Sequence record: OK272470.1
DNA length: 64,000 nucleotides
Origin: Escherichia phage JLBYU50
Reading direction: 5' to 3' (one strand)
Shown here: piece after piece, positions 42,506 to 58,934 of the stretch
Position numbering within the stretch: the first letter of the stretch is position 1
How the letters are laid out: each line of letters starts with the position of its first letter
Program-made: the position numbers and the translations under genes
The notes under the pieces: model-generated
Database searches by the model: none
Told to the model about the DNA's origin: nothing
The model's input: only the letters and a program-made list of their open reading frames with translations

Positions 42506-42883
42506 TTATTTCAGTTTGTAAACAATTACATTTAAACCTTTGTTTACTAGAGTTTCTTCGATCATAAGTTTTACAATATTCCAAGAACCTCCAGCCAAAC
42601 CACAACCAAGCATTGGTAAACCTACAATTTTACCGCCTGAAGATACAACATCGTCTCCCATACTATCTAGCGCATTGTAGATAGCTTCATAATTCAGGTC
42701 ACGCTTACCTTCCTCACGACGACTATAACCATATTGTCCATATAAATTATAAATTGTCAAATTGTTTTCTGTATATTTGGTAAACGTACCTAATTTTTTA
42801 TAATCACCACGTTTAGTGGCACAATCTGCTTTAAACGCACCAGGCCACTTGCTTTTAATTTTTGGTGCAATACCACTACCCAT
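42506..42883 (-). CDS. macro-domain-like protein (N-terminally truncated relative to canonical macro)
   Basis: MGSGIAPKIKSKWPG resembles macro Gly-rich phosphate loop; C-terminal KIVGLPMLGCGLAGGSWNIV resembles second macro signature; start overlaps stop of AAA+ gene. Confidence 0.4.
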   Translation of the reverse strand: MGSGIAPKIKSKWPGAFKADCATKRGDYKKLGTFTKYTENNLTIYNLYGQYGYSRREEGKRDLNYEAIYNALDSMGDDVVSSGGKIVGLPMLGCGLAGGSWNIVKLMIEETLVNKGLNVIVYKLK

Positions 42884-43829
42884 AGTGCAAAAACAGTTGA
42901 AGATGCTCTTCTCCTGACTTATGGTCTACAGCTACAACATAACGATTACCGCTAAACAAACCTTGTGCTGTCATACCGTCAATATCGGTATCTGCCGAAA
43001 CATCTCCTGTACGATCTACACCGTTAACTTTCAGGAGTTTAACTTCTTTTGCAGCATAGCGGTGTTCAGTAATACTGATACCCATTAATGCAAGTGCATC
43101 AGAGAATTTGTCATTAGGGTAACGGTTAAGTTCTTCTACTAGTGACTGAACAATATCAAAGTTCAAGTCCACGGAAAGATTATAAAGCGTTTCAAAATCT
43201 GGTAAAAAGGCTTTGTTCTCCAGATTTTTAGCCAGATAGTCATCCATAGTAGCTTTAGGTAGTTTCTTATAGCTAAAGCTGTAGAAAATACGGCTAGGAC
43301 GATTACGCAAAAATTCTGATACATAACCATCATTTTTAGTCAATACAAACAGCTTGTCATAGCCACCAACACCATCCAGCAGGGTAAGCAAACCATCCTG
43401 TGCATCTTTTTCAGCATACAGTTTATCAAATTCATCGATCATAATCATCACAGGTTGTGTGATTTTAGACATAAAATTGATAAAGCCTTCACCATTAAAA
43501 GCACTACCGATAGAAATAGTAGGAATACCCATTTCACGAAGAGCAGAAGATAGCATTTTAGCTTGCAAAGTTTTACCGCTACCCTTCGTACCCTCAAGGA
43601 GAACACCTGTGTTTTTACCTTTGCGGCTAAGGAACGTCTTGATAATACGTTCTGATTTATCATCAGTATCACCGTATGTTACTGAAGGGACTTCCATATC
43701 GTTTTTAGGATACAGGAAGAACTCACCACTTTGAGTAACACCTACACCAAAAGTTCCTGCTGGAATTTCTTCAATATCTGTACCAGACTTCTGACGCAGG
43801 AAGATTTGATTGCCGAATACTGTAAACAT
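42876..43829 (-). CDS. AAA+ ATPase (paralog A)
   Basis: Walker A GTKGSGKT; Walker B IMIDEFDK; sensor-1 FVLTKN; Arg-finger NRPSRIFY. Confidence 0.65.
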   Translation of the reverse strand: MFTVFGNQIFLRQKSGTDIEEIPAGTFGVGVTQSGEFFLYPKNDMEVPSVTYGDTDDKSERIIKTFLSRKGKNTGVLLEGTKGSGKTLQAKMLSSALREMGIPTISIGSAFNGEGFINFMSKITQPVMIMIDEFDKLYAEKDAQDGLLTLLDGVGGYDKLFVLTKNDGYVSEFLRNRPSRIFYSFSYKKLPKATMDDYLAKNLENKAFLPDFETLYNLSVDLNFDIVQSLVEELNRYPNDKFSDALALMGISITEHRYAAKEVKLLKVNGVDRTGDVSADTDIDGMTAQGLFSGNRYVVAVDHKSGEEHLQLFLHYG

Positions 43830-43849: not shown

Positions 43850-44320
43850 TTAGTCAGATTCCCAAATGTTGTCTTTCTTAACCCACATTCGTTGATTATC
43901 TGAACCTCTATAACGTTTCGTTGTTGGTTGATTCATATCATACTTACCATCTATCACTATGTCAACCAGTTTTTTAATTTTTTCTGGAATTTCTTCAAAA
44001 AGATATCCTGTATATAAGACAATATCTTTTTTGTTTCCAAAACAATCTCTTACCTTTTCAAGAACATACTCTACAGTATCAATGTTCTCTTTGTCAAGAG
44101 GTTCACCACCTAAAACTGTTAATCCTTTAATGAAAGGTCGAGATAAATCTTTCAAGATAAGATCTAATGTTTCAGTAGTGAACTCTTGTCCGTAGTTATA
44201 CGACCAGGCTTTCTGGTTAAAGCAGCCACGGCAACCGTGGCTACAACCGCTCACCCACAAAGAGCATCTTACACCGTCACCGTTGAGCATGTCAACAGGT
44301 TCATATCCGGCGTAATTCAA
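43850..44320 (-). CDS. nrdG: anaerobic ribonucleotide reductase activating protein (radical SAM)
   Basis: CSHGCRGCFN radical-SAM cysteine cluster; 156 aa; start overlaps nrdD stop. Confidence 0.8.
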   Translation of the reverse strand: MNYAGYEPVDMLNGDGVRCSLWVSGCSHGCRGCFNQKAWSYNYGQEFTTETLDLILKDLSRPFIKGLTVLGGEPLDKENIDTVEYVLEKVRDCFGNKKDIVLYTGYLFEEIPEKIKKLVDIVIDGKYDMNQPTTKRYRGSDNQRMWVKKDNIWESD

Positions 44321-46116
44321 AAATGTTTCTCCCTTTCTAATACTTCTTGCATTTTACCTTTATTATAAGGGCGAGAGTTAGGGGCAGAAAGGTATCCTGA
44401 CACTCTTCTGATCACAGATATGGATTCTTCTTCATGATTACCGCAACTTGGACACTCGAAGCCTTTAGCCGTTGCTTTAAATTCACCATGAAAACCACAT
44501 TTGAAACACTGATCTACAGGTTGGTTCACGCCAAAATAAGGAATTTTATTGTAGGCATAATCTACAAGAGTTTCCAGTGCTTGCAAGTTATTTTTAAGGT
44601 TTGGTGTTTCTACATAACCTATGTTCCCACCATTACTAATTTGTGCAAAACCTTCCTCATAATCCCACTTTTGGAACGGGGTAGTGTGCATCCACACAGG
44701 TTGATGGAAAGAGTTTGTCAAGTAGTCACGATCAATAGAACCAGGATAGCGATCATTTAATGCTTTGGCAAATTTATAGCACAAGGATTCTGCTGGTGTT
44801 CCATACAAACTAAAAGCTAAACCAGAACGTTCTTTAAATGTGCCACAGATATCCTTCATATATTGAAGGATGTTTTTACCCATTGCTTTTGGATTGGTGT
44901 TACCTGGGTATAAAATCTCCATAGCTTCTGCTAAACCTACGTAACCGATACTAATAGAGGCATAACCACCTTCGAATAGTTTACCAATCTCTTCATTAGC
45001 TTCTAGTCGAGCTAAAGCCCCTTCCATAAACAATGTAGGGTTTTGAGATGCTTTGGTATGTCTAATACGGTTAACACGTAGCATATGTGCCTTATACGCC
45101 ATCTCCATATGTTGTTCCAACAGTTCAGTAAATAAGATGCCCTTTTCACGGGACTCTGCTGCAATGATAGGTAAGTTTAAAGAAACTACGCCTAAGTTGA
45201 AACGACCATCATATTTTTCACCTTGCTCTGTTGCATAGTATGACAAGAAGCTACGGCAACCCATGCTTGTGACGCGACCATCTGAAGATCCTGTAACCTC
45301 TTTGTTTAAAGGTACAGAGATAAAATCAGGATAAATGCGTTCAGCACAACACTCCATTGCCAGTTGCTTCAAATCATAGTTTGGATCGCCAGCTTTCATG
45401 TTAACACCATCTTCCAAGAAGAAGATAACTTTAGGAAACACAGGAGTTACTCTATCTTTTCCCAACCCTTGTTTGTGCACCATTAGGTAGTTTTTAGTGA
45501 TCATTCTACCAAAAGCAGAGGTATCCAAGCCTAAACTAATTGTTATAAAAGGTGACTGACCATTTACACTCATTAGAGTGTTCACCTGGTAGATTAAAGT
45601 TTGCATTGCATCATAGACCTGTTTATCTACCATACGCATAGCAATATCATAATCACCAACATCAGCATATATTTTATTAAAACTTGCTTTAACGTATTGA
45701 CTAAGCCCAGTATCAACATGTGCACAAGTTTGTCCACCATATTGGCTAGAAGCTACTGCTTGAATAATTTGAGTTAGGACAGTAGTCGCTACACCGATAG
45801 ATTTTGGTTTTTCAATATGTGCATTACCAATACGGAAACCGTTCTCAAGCATATCTTGGTAATTTACCAGGCAACAATTAGTTAAAGGTGAGAGTAAATA
45901 ATCTAAATCGTGGATGTGACCATACCCACTTTTATGCCATTCTGCTAAATCTTCAGGTAAAATATGGGTCATTGCCATGTGCTTGCTTAGGATACCTGCT
46001 AGTAAATCTCGGTGAGTATTAACAATCATTGCAGGTTTGTTTGCATTTTCACGAGTAAATTCTTCGGATGTTTGTTCGAGGAATCCGATTACATCCTCAT
46101 ATAGTTTTTGGGTCAT
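44317..46116 (-). CDS. nrdD: anaerobic ribonucleoside-triphosphate reductase
   Basis: 599 aa; C-terminal Zn ribbon CFKCG...CPSCGNHEE and glycyl-radical motif RRVSGYL. Confidence 0.85.
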   Translation of the reverse strand: MTQKLYEDVIGFLEQTSEEFTRENANKPAMIVNTHRDLLAGILSKHMAMTHILPEDLAEWHKSGYGHIHDLDYLLSPLTNCCLVNYQDMLENGFRIGNAHIEKPKSIGVATTVLTQIIQAVASSQYGGQTCAHVDTGLSQYVKASFNKIYADVGDYDIAMRMVDKQVYDAMQTLIYQVNTLMSVNGQSPFITISLGLDTSAFGRMITKNYLMVHKQGLGKDRVTPVFPKVIFFLEDGVNMKAGDPNYDLKQLAMECCAERIYPDFISVPLNKEVTGSSDGRVTSMGCRSFLSYYATEQGEKYDGRFNLGVVSLNLPIIAAESREKGILFTELLEQHMEMAYKAHMLRVNRIRHTKASQNPTLFMEGALARLEANEEIGKLFEGGYASISIGYVGLAEAMEILYPGNTNPKAMGKNILQYMKDICGTFKERSGLAFSLYGTPAESLCYKFAKALNDRYPGSIDRDYLTNSFHQPVWMHTTPFQKWDYEEGFAQISNGGNIGYVETPNLKNNLQALETLVDYAYNKIPYFGVNQPVDQCFKCGFHGEFKATAKGFECPSCGNHEEESISVIRRVSGYLSAPNSRPYNKGKMQEVLEREKHF

Positions 46117-48451: not shown

Positions 48452-50188
48452 TTAGTTTACCAGTTTATTTATGTCTGGTAAAAGATTTATTTCACCTAAG
48501 AAATCACCTTCACCTTCCTCTAGCCAACTCTCATATGCTTGTGCATGATTATAGTTACCATCAAAAGAATCTGCAACAAATTTTTCTACAGTTTTTCGAG
48601 ATGTGCCAGCGCCAAATACACCAAGTTTAATACCATTGATCGGTAAAGTGGTGCTTGTTGGTACTTTCTCTGTTGCAACACGGTTGATATCTATAATCTC
48701 CTGTACGGTTGTGTTCCATTGTAAGCATTTAACACAACGGGTATGCGCTACATACAGTAGGTTTCGCTCTGCCTCTTCCAGTCCTACCCATTCACCAGTC
48801 TTTTTATCATAGTTGGAAGGAAAATCATTAGCAACAATAACCTGATCCCACTCCAAACCTTTAGACTTGTGTGCTGTAGTCAGTGTGACTTTTGCTGTAG
48901 GAGAATTTCTATGCGTTCTAAGTGTATGTGCTATGGTGTTCGCCTTACCAGAAACTACGATGTTTAACAAGCGTTTAGCATCTGGATCAGCCTCTGCACA
49001 CTCAACAAATTCATCCCAGTCTGCGTAAGGTAATACAGTTTCATGTTTTACTTTCTCAATATCTCCTCTACGAAGAGCATTAACACTATCTACCATAGAG
49101 ATAAAATCCCTGGTATCTACGTTAATAATAATTTCTTCCCCATCTGCAATACGATCCATTGCCTCCATAAGCAAGGTTAAATTCTTGCGAAAGATGATAG
49201 TGTAAGGTTTTGTATAGTCTACAACATCTGATTTGTAGCTACCTACTACAGTATCAAAGCCTTTACCAACCAAAGGATGACGCAAAGGTTCTTTATCGCT
49301 TAAAATCATATTGGCAATGTTTGCCACTTTGGGGCCAAAACGGAAGCAAGCAGTTAATGGAAGCTCTGCCCCATATGTAGATGTTTCCTTCATCATATTT
49401 TGGCTTCCACGGAACTGGTAGATGCTCTGATATTCGTCACCCACCACTACTACTTGTTTTGCAGATTTAGCATTTCGCAGAATAGACAAGAATGCAGGGT
49501 TAACATCCTGGAATTCATCACCAAAAATAATATCATAACCAAGATCAGCACCAGACAATTCAAACAATTTTACATAGGTGTCATGCGTCATCAAAGTATC
49601 TGTGTTAGGATCGATGCGCTCTCGCCACAATTGTTTTGCATACTTAACTACTTCTGTAATTAGTTTGTGTTCGTTAATACCTTTTCTTTTAATATCTGCA
49701 AGATGTACACCAGGAAAATGTTTACGGCTAATAAAAGGATCATCCGAAAATTCAAACTTACCTACGGTTTGCTTGATCATTAAACCAATCATAGCACGAG
49801 TTAAAAGTGTTTTCCCTCGTTTATCAATAAGATTATTAATCTTAAATTTCTTTGCTATCTCGCTACCTGTACCTGCAACGTTAACATACTGTCCTTCTGG
49901 TCGTGACAGTTTTGCACGTAAACGATGATCCAGGAATTGATAGCAAATAGAATGCAATGTACGGCATTCTACATTTAGTGGCATCTTACGTCGTGCTTCT
50001 TCTGCCATGCTTTTATTGAAAGCTAAGTAAAGAATGCGATCTTCTGTACTGTTAGCCAGCAAATAAAGTGTTGACGTTTTGCCTGATCCAGATTTAGCTT
50101 GGATAGTTAAAAAACGATGGTCTGGAAAAGCCTCCTTAATAGCTGTTTGCTCTTCTGTTGGAGTAAAACTCAACTCTTTCTTAGCCAT
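48452..50188 (-). CDS. superfamily 1 DNA helicase (UvrD/Dda-like)
   Basis: Walker A AKSGSGKTST; motif II FGDEFQD; start reassigned to ATG at 50188 (RBS agagagg). Confidence 0.7.
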   Translation of the reverse strand: MAKKELSFTPTEEQTAIKEAFPDHRFLTIQAKSGSGKTSTLYLLANSTEDRILYLAFNKSMAEEARRKMPLNVECRTLHSICYQFLDHRLRAKLSRPEGQYVNVAGTGSEIAKKFKINNLIDKRGKTLLTRAMIGLMIKQTVGKFEFSDDPFISRKHFPGVHLADIKRKGINEHKLITEVVKYAKQLWRERIDPNTDTLMTHDTYVKLFELSGADLGYDIIFGDEFQDVNPAFLSILRNAKSAKQVVVVGDEYQSIYQFRGSQNMMKETSTYGAELPLTACFRFGPKVANIANMILSDKEPLRHPLVGKGFDTVVGSYKSDVVDYTKPYTIIFRKNLTLLMEAMDRIADGEEIIINVDTRDFISMVDSVNALRRGDIEKVKHETVLPYADWDEFVECAEADPDAKRLLNIVVSGKANTIAHTLRTHRNSPTAKVTLTTAHKSKGLEWDQVIVANDFPSNYDKKTGEWVGLEEAERNLLYVAHTRCVKCLQWNTTVQEIIDINRVATEKVPTSTTLPINGIKLGVFGAGTSRKTVEKFVADSFDGNYNHAQAYESWLEEGEGDFLGEINLLPDINKLVN

Positions 50189-50189
50189 T

Positions 50190-50666
50190 TCAACCTCTCT
50201 TAATTTGTTTAACAAGCATAGGAACAAAATCTCGTTTTAAAATTTGTTCAATAATATGATCAGGTAGCTGTTGGAAATTATAATTAAAAGCTACTGTCTC
50301 ACCTTTAGGTGTTTCTACCCGCACATATAACATGTTACGAAGTTTATCCACTTGTGCTGTGTATTCTAAACCATGTAATTGATGTAATGCAAACATCAAA
50401 TCATCAGTTTCAGTTTGGAATCTATCCCTTCCCTGCATCAAGGACAAGGAAAAAGGTAGATTTTCCCTAAGAGCCACCTTCTTAGGCACTAGTGAAGGGA
50501 AATACTCCCCAATAACTTCCTGTGTAAGCTGAATACACTCTTTTTCAAGCTGGTTTTGTTCCTTGAGTTCACAAACACTCTTTTGTAAAGTATTAACCTC
50601 TTTTTGCAAAGCTGCTAGTTGAGCACTTAACTTTCTTTTTTGATTACGACCAAAACGTTTAGACAT
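50190..50666 (-). CDS. hypothetical coiled-coil protein
   Basis: 158 aa, N-terminal heptad region. Confidence 0.45.
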   Translation of the reverse strand: MSKRFGRNQKRKLSAQLAALQKEVNTLQKSVCELKEQNQLEKECIQLTQEVIGEYFPSLVPKKVALRENLPFSLSLMQGRDRFQTETDDLMFALHQLHGLEYTAQVDKLRNMLYVRVETPKGETVAFNYNFQQLPDHIIEQILKRDFVPMLVKQIKRG

Positions 50667-51212: not shown

Positions 51213-51578
51213 TTAAACGTTTTCTAAATCTTTTAAGGCATTACCCAACGTTAGAACAATAACATCGTTTGCTGCCTCTTCCCCATTGATATTGGTGAAA
51301 TTTGGTGTTACAAAAGTAACCATATAAAACTCGTCCACCTGGAAGATAGCAATAACACCATCCATCTTAACATCTTGACGAAAGGAAAAACCAATCATCT
51401 TCTCTTGCAAAGGCATATCCCCTTCCTTCATTACCGCTAGGGAGTTTTCAGGAATGTTATATTTATCTGCTCCAATGTAGATGTACGTAATGTTATCTTT
51501 ATCGTGATGATACAGGGTTGCTTTTTCCATATCTAAACCTGACAGATCAAATACGTTAATTTCTTGTGTAGTCTTCAT
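51213..51578 (-). CDS. hypothetical protein
   Basis: Start reassigned to ATG at 51578 with RBS gggagga. Confidence 0.45.
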   Translation of the reverse strand: MKTTQEINVFDLSGLDMEKATLYHHDKDNITYIYIGADKYNIPENSLAVMKEGDMPLQEKMIGFSFRQDVKMDGVIAIFQVDEFYMVTFVTPNFTNINGEEAANDVIVLTLGNALKDLENV

Positions 51579-51966
51579 AAATATCCTCCCAAATCCAATA
51601 ATCATCTGTGTAAGTAGGATGCCTTTTATCCCACTCTGTTCTAGCCCAAGCAACCGCTGCTACCAACACATCACCATGACAAGGTTGAGGTGAGCAGAAG
51701 CAAACTAAGTCTTTCCCTTCTAATTCTAACAAATCCTCAAGAGTGATTTTACCACAACGAATTTGTTCCCACAACCACTCTTTATATCTTTGTATAGTTG
51801 ACCCTCGTGGTTCATCATCCTTTAACTTAAAAGGATTTGCAAACTTTGAGGCTTTTAACCCCATATGAGGCATAGCTCTGCCAATGTAAACTGCACCTTC
51901 AGGTATTACTTTACCTAAGTGGTAGAAATTCAATACTCTCATATTAACCCAAACACATTTGTGCAA
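51556..51966 (-). CDS. DUF4326-like protein
   Basis: VYIGRAMPHMGLKASKFANPF ... YKEWLWEQI ... GKDLVCFCSPQPCHGDVL matches DUF4326 pattern. Confidence 0.55.
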   Translation of the reverse strand: MHKCVWVNMRVLNFYHLGKVIPEGAVYIGRAMPHMGLKASKFANPFKLKDDEPRGSTIQRYKEWLWEQIRCGKITLEDLLELEGKDLVCFCSPQPCHGDVLVAAVAWARTEWDKRHPTYTDDYWIWEDIYEDYTRN

Positions 51967-56346: not shown

Positions 56347-56898
56347 ATGCAAAACATCGATCTTACTTGGATAGAAGCCAAAGAAGCAATGTTAAAAGGC
56401 AAACGCGTTAAACATAAATACTTTTGCGAAGGAGAATGGTTTGAAATGCGTAACCGATCCATTGTAGATGAAAAAGGGAATGACATGCAACAATGGTTCA
56501 AAAATGAAATTTGGCAGGGAACAGGTTGGTCTGTAGTTGAAGAGCAGCCTAGCTCAATCGCACTGTTTAGCCCTATTATGTATCGCGTTATCGGTGCTTT
56601 AGTTGTTGATCACGGGATTGCAGTGGAAAAAGAATACTGGGAAGAGGTATCTTTTTTCAACCTGGCTTCTTATGCAAAAAGCCATATGCACTTGTTTGAA
56701 GAAGGGGATGAATTTGTTCTTCGTATGCGATATGGCAAAGAATTCAGATTACCACTTGATAACGATGTAGACACTGTTGTAAAATGGTTAGCAGAGCATT
56801 ATGCTTACGATGCAATTTGTGGTCGCAGCTTCGGCAACGAACGCTGGGACATGATTTGTGAAAAATATGATTTTGAGCCGGAATACGGAGTTTTATAA
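56347..56898 (+). CDS. protein with DUF2829-like N-terminal domain (Tad2-like candidate)
   Basis: Start reassigned to ATG at 56347 (RBS gagaggag); N-terminus LTWIEAKEAMLKGKRVKHKYF resembles DUF2829 opening FGEALEALKxGKKVxRxGW. Confidence 0.4.
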   Translation: MQNIDLTWIEAKEAMLKGKRVKHKYFCEGEWFEMRNRSIVDEKGNDMQQWFKNEIWQGTGWSVVEEQPSSIALFSPIMYRVIGALVVDHGIAVEKEYWEEVSFFNLASYAKSHMHLFEEGDEFVLRMRYGKEFRLPLDNDVDTVVKWLAEHYAYDAICGRSFGNERWDMICEKYDFEPEYGVL

Positions 56899-57806: not shown

Positions 57807-58934
57807 ATGAAATACACGATTTATGGTGATATTGTAAGTGTAAATAAAGATATGGGCGTGGAATCTAACTATCTTCCACCTGGATTCTATACTGTTAGTC
57901 GTGATCCCCTTGGCAATTATTTTTTAAGCCGTGGTAATCTGACAGGTGTACCGGATGTTTTGTATGGTGAAACAGAAAAACGAGCAAATCACGTTATCCG
58001 TACATTCCATCGCCGGAGTGCACAAGGTAAAAACACAGGCTTGCTTCTGACAGGAACTAAGGGCAGTGGTAAAACTATGTTAGCCAAACTCATTAGTCGT
58101 GACCTTGTAGAAGAAGGTATTCCAACTATTATGGTTACTCAAGCCTACAGTGATGCTAATTTCATTGAACTTATTAGCAAGATCACCGACAAAGCAGTGA
58201 TTATTTTTGACGAGTTTGATAAAGTGTATGAGAAGAAACAAGATCAAGAAGCACTTCTCACTTTGTTAGATGGTACTGGCAGTGGTAATAAACTGTTTAT
58301 TCTGACTAAAAACAGTGGTTTTATTTCTGAATTCTTTTTAAATCGTCCTAGTCGTGTGTTTTATAATTTTAATTATGATAAAATCTCACTAGAAACTATG
58401 ATTGACTATTTAGATAAAAACCTAGATAACAAAGCACACTTTGATAATTTCCAAAGACTTTGGGATGTAAGTTTAGAGTTGTCCTTTGATGTGATCCAAG
58501 GTATAGTAGAAGAACTTAATTTCTACCCTGATTTATCCTTTAAAGAATGCATCTCTATGATGGGCGTTTCTTTAGGTGGTGGTAATAAATGGGATATCAG
58601 CAGTGTTGTTATTAATGGGAAACTTCAGAAAGTTAGCTGGGTATCTAGTTGGCATAACTTTACACCTGCAATCTTTTTAGGTGGCTCGTGCACACTAGAC
58701 GTGTACTTGTCATCTCCAAGTGATGCAGACTCTAAAGAAGCCCTTGCTAATAGCTCTTACGTGGTTTTTGATGATGAAGGAGATGCTCGAATTCCATTGA
58801 ATGCGACAAAAATGAAAGCAGATCTTATTACAGGCGGTAAAATCGTTGTGTTTAGTGATGATCCAGAAGATTCTTTCCGTATTGTTCTGGAGCCAACTAT
58901 CACCAATGGTGCAACTTTGGCAAGTGTGTTTTAA
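57807..58934 (+). CDS. AAA+ ATPase (paralog B)
   Basis: Walker A GTKGSGKT; Walker B IIFDEFDK; sensor-1 FILTKN; Arg-finger NRPSRVFY; collinear with paralog A across about 300 aa. Confidence 0.65.
   Translation: MKYTIYGDIVSVNKDMGVESNYLPPGFYTVSRDPLGNYFLSRGNLTGVPDVLYGETEKRANHVIRTFHRRSAQGKNTGLLLTGTKGSGKTMLAKLISRDLVEEGIPTIMVTQAYSDANFIELISKITDKAVIIFDEFDKVYEKKQDQEALLTLLDGTGSGNKLFILTKNSGFISEFFLNRPSRVFYNFNYDKISLETMIDYLDKNLDNKAHFDNFQRLWDVSLELSFDVIQGIVEELNFYPDLSFKECISMMGVSLGGGNKWDISSVVINGKLQKVSWVSSWHNFTPAIFLGGSCTLDVYLSSPSDADSKEALANSSYVVFDDEGDARIPLNATKMKADLITGGKIVVFSDDPEDSFRIVLEPTITNGATLASVF

Follow-up and report, generated by a model that had tools for sequence, protein, structure and literature searches.

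A DUF4326 protein of Escherichia phage JLBYU50 and the predicted link of its family to ADP-ribose processing

The genome of Escherichia phage JLBYU50 (sequence record OK272470.1) carries a small gene for a protein of the DUF4326 family, to which NrdA.1 of phage T4 also belongs. It is a very large and virus-rich family (about 24,000 representatives at 50% identity) with neither a solved structure nor a known activity. The locus raises the question of what such a protein does for a phage, and whether it belongs with ADP-ribose-related enzymes, as a first-pass annotation of this DNA had suggested. We analyzed a stretch of 64,000 nucleotides, referred to below as the window, with positions counted from its first letter. 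The strongest evidence connecting the family with ADP-ribose biology is the recurrent fusion of DUF4326 to NADAR, SLOG, and Macro domains. On sequence grounds this link is real at the family level, and it has already been published as an in-silico prediction.

Family membership and domain fusions

The assignment of the 128-residue protein to DUF4326 was confirmed by profile comparison. The match to Pfam PF14216 covered profile positions 5 to 81 of 82 with an E value of 1.4e-21 and a score of 77.3 bits (gathering cut-off, 25), which is far above chance. The motifs by which the protein had originally been recognized (YIGR, FANPF, YKEWLW, and GKDLVCFCSPQPCHGDVL) are all present in the translation, and the residues of its CxC...CHGD cluster (C81, C83, C88, H89, and D91) are invariant or nearly so in three alignments. 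The protein also matched PHROG 464 (unknown function; E value, 2e-42) and PHROG 24867 ('ribonucleotide reductase NrdA-like'; E value, 1.9e-28).

Between 50 and 54 kb, the window is 98 to 99% identical to about 50 Escherichia phages of about 146 kb. Close relatives include VivaForever, phiWec187, PaulScherrer, and BME3, which belong to the phi92-like phages (genus Justusliebigvirus, Stephanstirmvirinae). The DUF4326 gene is itself 98 to 99% identical to phage genes in GenBank, where it is labeled 'hypothetical protein', 'DUF4326 domain-containing protein', or 'NrdA-like ribonucleotide reductase', and a protein search found it in phi92 (gp202) at 98%. Because of this identity to annotated genes, the protein is, as judged from its sequence, an ordinary and already catalogued member with nothing new in kind, and the JLBYU50 gene by itself adds nothing to the catalogue. 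What is added here is a correspondence between three genes and one fusion protein, the membership of T4-type NrdA.1 in the family together with the source of a misannotation, the recognition of a macrodomain gene as a deletion remnant, and the lack of a well-matching fold.

An index-free HMMER search covering 1.84 billion representatives at 50% identity returned 24,005 proteins at an E value of ≤1e-3 and 9,922 at ≤1e-10; a word-indexed profile search gave at least 8,000 candidates. Among the best 150 of the 24,005 index-free matches, 40 were long members, in which the Pfam partners were NADAR (7), YAcAr-type SLOG (5), DprA-like SLOG (4), Macro (1), DUF488 (1), and ASCH (1). NADAR and SLOG are the commonest fusion partners of DUF4326. 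Independent samples contained SLOG fusions in both orders (P0097, P0142, L059, L041, L105, L072, and L148) as well as NADAR fusions (P0131 and L151). In P0305, a NADAR domain (32% identity to that of the window; E value, 2e-23) is followed by a DUF4326 domain with 49% identity to the JLBYU50 query (E value, 5e-37), and in P0131 a divergent NADAR-like domain precedes a DUF4326 domain that is 69% identical to the query. The same DUF4326 fusions have been reported previously (PMC7824862), and the published in-silico prediction is that DUF4326 processes a phosphate on the ribose of ADP-ribose or of its breakdown products. In addition, the SLOG-like anti-Avs protein ORF83 has amoeba-virus homologues with a C-terminal DUF4326 domain (bioRxiv 10.1101/2025.06.06.658234).

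The metagenomic protein P0300 combines Macro, NADAR, and DUF4326 domains in a single chain. Its Macro domain is 39% identical to the macrodomain protein of PaulScherrer (E value, 4e-28), its NADAR domain is 30% identical to that of the window (E value, 2e-18), and its DUF4326 domain is 43% identical to the query (alignment A6, described below). DarG was the best PADLOC match for the macro domains of both P0300 and the remnant in the window. Judging from their sequences, the phi92-like phages of E. coli as a group carry the full trio as three genes (a DarG-type Macro, NADAR, and DUF4326), and P0300 is the one-protein equivalent. By the Rosetta-stone argument, the fusion in P0300 suggests that the three separate genes act in one process. 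The first-pass annotation had suggested that the phage carries several nucleotide- or ADP-ribose-related accessory enzymes, namely, NADAR, a macro-like open reading frame (ORF), a DUF2829-like ORF, and DUF4326. The fusions support the family link on which this proposal depends, but the set in JLBYU50 reduces to NADAR and DUF4326, because the macro gene is a remnant and the DUF2829-like ORF has no profile support.

According to local hidden Markov models (HMMs), 7 of the 40 long members contain tandem copies of DUF4326. Two or three tandem domains were seen in P0121, P0291, P0298, P0316, P0327, P0386, and P0311, and in the last of these (1,411 amino acids [aa]) SLOG and DUF4326 alternate twice. 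In L085, L051, and L088, DUF4326 is embedded in a helicase-like protein with GTGKS ... FDEQ motifs.

The family is widely distributed. By tblastn, 1,834 of 50,697 phage records contained a homologue, among them those of T4-type phages. A Foldseek search of BFVD placed DUF4326 in three groups of viruses: tailed phages, haloarchaeal viruses (HHTV-1, phiH, and SH1), and giant viruses (Pithovirus, Marseillevirus, Pandoravirus, and Mimivirus). The bacterial copies occur mostly in Alphaproteobacteria and other environmental lineages, often beside integrases, conjugation genes, and transposases.

Conserved residues and predicted fold

Conservation was examined in three alignments: A1 (51 close and medium relatives), A5 (the 40 multidomain members from the index-free search), and A6 (12 deliberately distant members, including T4-type NrdA.1). 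Some loci had been fetched by the pattern DLVC[FYW]C, so that conservation in that stretch is partly ascertainment; A5 and A6 are free of this bias. The constant positions are R22, N36 (followed by P37), R46, L74, L79, C81, C83, P85, C88, and H89, usually followed by G90 and D91. The query has all of R22, N36, P37, R46, C81, C83, P85, C88, H89, G90, and D91, and in each of these columns conservation is complete or no lower than 90% across the three alignments. The two arginines, the asparagine, and the C-x-C-x-P-x2-C-H cluster are kept from T4-type NrdA.1 to the fused members in A6.

The AlphaFold2 (AF2) model of the protein has a predicted local distance difference test (pLDDT) score of 89.5 and a predicted template modeling (pTM) score of 0.79, with the last 20 residues poorly defined. 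Only three short strands are assigned, and the elements are beta1 (residues 3 to 5), beta2 (about 18 to 19), alpha1 (46 to 62), alpha2 (68 to 72), beta3 (79 to 81), and alpha3 (89 to 107). C81 lies in beta3, C83 just past it, and H89 at the N terminus of alpha3; by these boundaries, the Cys/His cluster would run from the end of a core strand through a short loop into the first helical turn. An anion-binding loop occupies the equivalent strand-end/helix-start position in Cys-phosphatases, rhodaneses, and the RapZ C-domain.

As modeled, the structure is a confident one that no known fold fits well. A Foldseek search of PDB gave no significant match, and a sequence search of PDB with the protein or the family profile gave nothing credible. 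The best hits of the latter, glutathione S-transferase (E value, 0.058) and Der p 1 (E value, 0.27), were dismissed as chance matches to the CHGD stretch. In comparisons with individual known folds, the scores were 5.1 for NADAR 8bau_A with ADP-ribose, 4.8 for YbiA 2b3w, 4.0 for NADAR 8bat, 3.9 and 3.8 for the RapZ C-domain, 3.6 for PTEN, 3.4 for DUSP26, and 3.0 for the viral tyrosine phosphatase OH1.

Burroughs and Aravind reportedly placed the family, in 2023, in a 'RapZ-C-DUF488-DUF4326 clade' with the Cys-phosphatases and rhodaneses. The clade is cited here by way of PMC9503650. Compared with the RapZ-C/Cys-phosphatase group, DUF4326 has His in place of Arg, no C-X5-R loop, and two extra invariant Cys residues. 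The LPNPHW motif of the RapZ C-domain resembles the Asn-Pro loop of DUF4326, an equivalence suggested by motif order rather than by alignment, and RapZ-C binds RNA and sugar phosphates and is not a known enzyme. Homology to NADAR or to RapZ is not claimed, because hhalign was negative for both: the probability was 0.1 to 0.3% for DUF4326 against a 44-sequence NADAR alignment with two profiles and 0.35% for an 87-sequence DUF4326 profile against the single E. coli RapZ sequence.

The phi92-like and rV5-like clade differs from most of DUF4326 by an extra loop, MPHMGLKAS (residues 24 to 32), and by the tail YWIWEDIYEDY (A1). This C-terminal tail, DDYWIWEDIYEDY in JLBYU50 and GYWNWEE in relatives, is kept in the enterobacterial myovirus clade and absent from most of the family. 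Aromatic and acidic in composition, it looks like a partner-docking tail.

Proposed function and its alternatives

The role that we favor for DUF4326, at a probability of about 0.45, is ADP-ribose- or NAD-linked processing, most probably as an enzyme acting on a phospho-ribose linkage; binding of the same ADP-ribose-derived molecules as ligands is less likely. The protein would be a stand-alone small alpha/beta module (beta1, beta2, Asn-Pro loop, two helices, beta3, Cys-rich loop, and helix) in which R22, N36, R46, C81, C83, C88, H89, and D91 may line a single pocket where beta3 ends and the last helix begins. It would act on phospho-ribose within a molecule derived from ADP-ribose or within an ADP-ribosylated nucleic acid; candidate substrates are ADP-ribose joined through a phosphate to a DNA or RNA end and a phosphorylated breakdown product of ADP-ribose. 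The protein may share a pathway with NADAR and the DarG-type macrodomain, which remove ADP-ribose from guanine and thymine, respectively. For the phage, it may be an accessory function of the early or middle phase that reverses or detoxifies host immunity based on NAD+ or ADP-ribose, such as DarT-type DNA ADP-ribosylation. We infer the pocket, the substrate class, catalysis, and the anti-defense role alike.

The partner activities come from earlier work. Schuller and colleagues reportedly described, in 2023, the reversal by NADAR of guanine ADP-ribosylation by DarT1, and Jankevicius and colleagues are said to have described, in 2016, the reversal of thymine ADP-ribosylation by the DarG macrodomain. 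The DarG-type macrodomain acts on thymine in single-stranded DNA, and both it and NADAR oppose DarT toxins, which defend against phages. It is because of these activities that DUF4326 is placed, provisionally, in the reversal or clean-up of nucleic-acid ADP-ribosylation. DUF4326 resembles the anti-defense erasers of phages that act on NAD+ or ADP-ribose (NADAR and macrodomains against DarT; ORF83) in its Macro, NADAR, and SLOG company and in its viral spread across phages, archaeal viruses, and giant viruses, but a literature search found no anti-defense phenotype for any DUF4326 protein. Because its closest relatives in other viruses are joined to domains that remove ADP-ribose, the protein is a testable candidate for a phage counter-defense enzyme. 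Several phi92-like phages that are in the BASEL collection and grow on K-12 offer a genetically tractable system for the function of DUF4326 and for its possible part in the phage response to DNA ADP-ribosylation or to other NAD+-based defenses.

The first-pass annotation had proposed a check of homologue neighborhoods for linkage with ADP-ribose or defense genes. In a set of 160 loci with six-frame ORFs, the association was weak to modest. Of about 160 loci, 17 had SLOG within 6 kb of DUF4326 by local HMMs; the strand could be judged in 16 of these and was always that of DUF4326. In five loci the two were fused, and in three they lay within 100 bases of each other. NADAR occurred at one locus, where it was fused, and Macro as one convincing neighbor, about 1% each of the loci; three short Macro matches, obtained by jackhmmer with the truncated macro ORF as seed, were spurious. 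Neighbor clustering at the BLAST level gave no conserved neighbor family across 32 locus groups, and a Pfam scan of 298 same-strand neighbors within 2.5 kb gave no dominant ADP-ribose partner, the neighbors being mostly replication, recombination, integrase, and conjugation genes. Viral neighbors included RNA and DNA polymerases, helicases, metallophosphoesterases, and resolvases, along with two SLOG proteins, one nicotinamide mononucleotide transporter, and one NAD-dependent ligase; bacterial neighbors included integrases, sliding clamps, TraG/TrwB, SSB, DpdA, methylases, and transposases.

Two further loci are suggestive but anecdotal. P0292 (L175:5715-14450), a NADAR-DUF4326 fusion of 514 aa whose N-terminal ~190 aa are unassigned, is encoded immediately before the HsdM, HsdS, and HsdR genes of a complete type I restriction-modification operon, on its upstream side. 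The stand-alone DUF4326 protein P0083 (L003:8001-15673, on the bacterial chromosome GCA_902731075.1) is encoded 3 to 7 kb from NAD salvage genes (NMNAT-like, NAPRTase, and a nicotinamidase-like isochorismatase), with an IS605-type TnpB in between.

Several results weigh against an ADP-ribose processing enzyme. Most homologue neighborhoods are without an ADP-ribose gene, and in T4-type phages the DUF4326 gene is found in the frd-td-nrdA block, not beside ADP-ribose genes. DUF4326 stands alone in about three quarters of the top-scoring members, and no PADLOC model matches it. In the window, the accessory genes described at first as one block are not clustered: the NADAR gene is 8 kb from the DUF4326 gene in a divergent rightward unit, and the macro remnant is 8.7 kb away. 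Since the macro gene is truncated and the DUF4326 gene is intact, DUF4326 cannot strictly depend on it. The negative hhalign results given above count here as well. The C-X5-R(S/T) phosphatase loop is absent, the corresponding loop (C83-SPQPC-H89-G-D) having no Arg; this C83-X5-H89 loop includes a Pro that is invariant, and in some relatives it differs in length (A1). The literature search found no experimental work on DUF4326, all mentions being annotation or in-silico studies, in agreement with the original remark that no biochemical function is established.

The three invariant Cys residues and the His could equally form a zinc site. The main alternative is a noncatalytic module in which C81, C83, C88, and H89 chelate a structural Zn2+ and which binds a nucleic-acid end or a nucleotide ligand, either as an adaptor or sensor like the RapZ C-domain (a noncatalytic binder of small RNA and glucosamine-6-phosphate) or as a sponge that takes up a signal derived from ADP-ribose. 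The variable loop length and the tandem repeats, like the Cys and His residues, fit a metal-stabilized binding module. However, N36, R22, R46, and D91 are also invariant, beyond the needs of a structural zinc knuckle, and the fusion partners (NADAR, Macro, and SLOG/LOG-like domains) are mostly enzymes, to which such fused modules usually add a catalytic step. We give this alternative a low but appreciable probability, clearly below that of the phospho-ribose enzyme.

An extension of the enzyme proposal is that DUF4326 would be a hitherto unrecognized class of enzyme, a third eraser or processing activity completing a toolkit of Macro, NADAR, and DUF4326 against nucleic-acid ADP-ribosylation, and that viruses of all three domains of life would use it against NAD+-dependent immunity. 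Such an enzyme might strip DNA or RNA ends of phosphate-linked ADP-ribose or might dephosphorylate an ADP-ribose-derived product, and it might do so with a Cys/His, possibly metal-assisted, site unlike that of canonical C-X5-R phosphatases. In this full form the idea is rather unlikely.

A helper of ribonucleotide reductase (RNR), that is, a redox-active CxC thiol protein or a regulator of RNR or of deoxynucleoside triphosphate synthesis, is improbable. Its basis is the T4-type gene nrdA.1, which overlaps the start of nrdA within frd-td-nrdA-nrdB. By profile comparison, T4-type NrdA.1 was confirmed as a member of DUF4326: the match in RB9 is the 108-aa nrdA.1 ORF (L171:3393-3719; Pfam DUF4326 E value, 1.3e-21), which overlaps the nrdA start, and NrdA.1 of Vibrio phage nt-1 (L170:3468-3752) matched at 3.1e-27. 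The family, NrdA.1 included, shares [Y]IGR, NPF, R, and GKxLVCxCxPxxCHGD in stand-alone proteins of about 100 to 130 aa. The JLBYU50 gene lies in the same leftward array as nrdD/nrdG, about 5.4 kb upstream of them, an RNR large subunit occurs in 1 of 48 dereplicated viral neighborhoods, and the CxC and CH motifs could be redox-active. However, RNR adjacency is confined to the T4-like clade; the T4 gene abuts nrdA, whereas the phi92-like gene is located elsewhere, with a UvrD helicase, tRNA-synthetase-like genes, and several small ORFs intervening in the window. None of the 40 multidomain members is fused to RNR, thioredoxin, or glutaredoxin. Pfam found DUF4326 only, and no RNR domain, in the 128-aa query and in NrdA.1 of RB9 and nt-1. 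We therefore rejected the annotation 'NrdA-like ribonucleotide reductase'; the label of PHROG 24867 is a naming artifact, because it was inherited from the gene name nrdA.1, which denotes a separate ORF upstream of nrdA. The error is widespread and is spreading to proteins of about 100 to 130 aa in many phage records.

A trimmed and very divergent NADAR relative that cleaves the ribose-base bond as a minimal N-glycosidase is the least probable reading, since the query has no Pfam NADAR hit and no equivalents of the NADAR invariant columns, and DUF4326 differs from NADAR (PF08719; YbiA and the DarT1-associated guanine de-ADP-ribosylases) in its conserved residues and is about half its size.

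Gene layout and partner genes in the window

The coding sequence (CDS) of the DUF4326 protein is almost certainly the 128-aa frame that starts at ATG (Table 1). The ORF finder had listed 51556..51966 on the minus strand with a TTG start. This start was rejected because the extension overlaps the upstream gene and relatives begin at the ATG. The TAA of the upstream gene (51946-51944) is followed one base later by the ATG, and the identical start is annotated in the orthologues of PaulScherrer (bas60_0086) and BME3 (WWY66276). The next gene begins inside the 3' end of the DUF4326 gene with an overlap of 23 nucleotides (nt); this tight operon packing makes the DUF4326 gene part of a compact leftward array that extends from about 56.2 kb to about 36 kb. 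When the window was scanned for promoters and terminators between 48 and 57 kb, the result was no better than for shuffled sequence.

Table 1. Positions of the DUF4326 gene, its conserved elements, and other features of the window
Feature	Position	Strand	Evidence or remark
DUF4326 protein CDS	51556-51942	-	128 aa; ATG 51942-51940, TAA 51558-51556; ORF translation, Pfam, orthologue annotation, AF2 model
Y19-I-G21-R22, strand beta2 and invariant Arg	51877..51888	-	R22 invariant in A6 and in 98% of 87 dereplicated members
F34-A-N36-P37-F38, invariant Asn-Pro loop	51829..51843	-	N36 invariant (A1, A6)
Cys/His cluster C81-F-C83-S-P85-Q-P-C88-H89-G-D91	51670..51702	-	Putative active or metal site; sequence, alignments, model
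C-terminal tail, residues 108-128, RHPTYTDDYWIWEDIYEDYTRN	51556..51621	-	Aromatic-acidic; pLDDT 65 to 48 in the last two 10-residue blocks
Ribosome-binding site GGGAGGA (51590-51584) and ATG (51578-51576) of the next gene	51576..51590	-	Inside the DUF4326 3' end; sequence
CDS downstream of DUF4326	51213-51578		Annotated in relatives
NADAR protein, 183 aa	60002-60553	+	Pfam NADAR E 2.5e-36; PDB 8bau E 9.5e-13; putative functional partner
DarG/TARG1-type macrodomain remnant, 5'-truncated	42506-42883	-	Pfam Macro 24.5 bits; PADLOC DarG E 1e-10; PDB TARG1-type macrodomains
Deletion junction	42898/42899		Context 42506-43829
AAA ATPase	42876-43829	-	317 aa
AAA ATPase	57807-58934	+	Precedes CapR/T5orf172 protein and NADAR
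CapR/T5orf172 protein, 330 aa	59009-60001	+	Three CapR-homology repeats and T5orf172 domain
DUF2829-like ORF	56347-56898	+	
nrdD/nrdG	43850-46116		
UvrD/Rep-type helicase	48452-50227	-	591 aa from the listed TTG

The partner genes named at first fared differently. The NADAR gene was confirmed. The macro-like ORF is indeed of macrodomain type, but it is only the 3' remnant of a 244-aa gene cut by a deletion; the intact macrodomain gene of the relatives is a putative functional partner of DUF4326. A clean deletion of 2,459 bp distinguishes the window from PaulScherrer and BME3. Lost entirely are genes for a phosphoribosyltransferase and a HAD-family protein as well as two small ORFs; an AAA ATPase lacks its last 76 codons (317 aa here versus 386), and the macrodomain protein lacks its first 118, among them those for the IAHCCN strand of the macro fold (125 aa here versus 244). 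None of 54 related phage records spans the junction, and the deletion appears to be unique to JLBYU50 or its assembly. For the DUF2829-like ORF, no hit was obtained with Pfam even at an E value of ≤10 or with PADLOC, and its N terminus (LTWIEAKEAMLKGKRVK) only loosely recalls DUF2829.

The truncated AAA ATPase has a paralogue in the window (47% identity over 254 residues; E value, 5e-83), and each lies just upstream of an ADP-ribose-related block: the plus-strand copy precedes the CapR/T5orf172 and NADAR genes, and the minus-strand copy precedes HAD, phosphoribosyltransferase, and macro genes in intact relatives. The CapR/T5orf172 ORF, whose PaulScherrer counterpart is longer (1,404 nt), ends one base before the NADAR start, which suggests translational coupling. 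The UvrD/Rep-type helicase gene is intein-free in the window, and its PaulScherrer orthologue (L001:17415-20189) contains a 1,041-nt intein.

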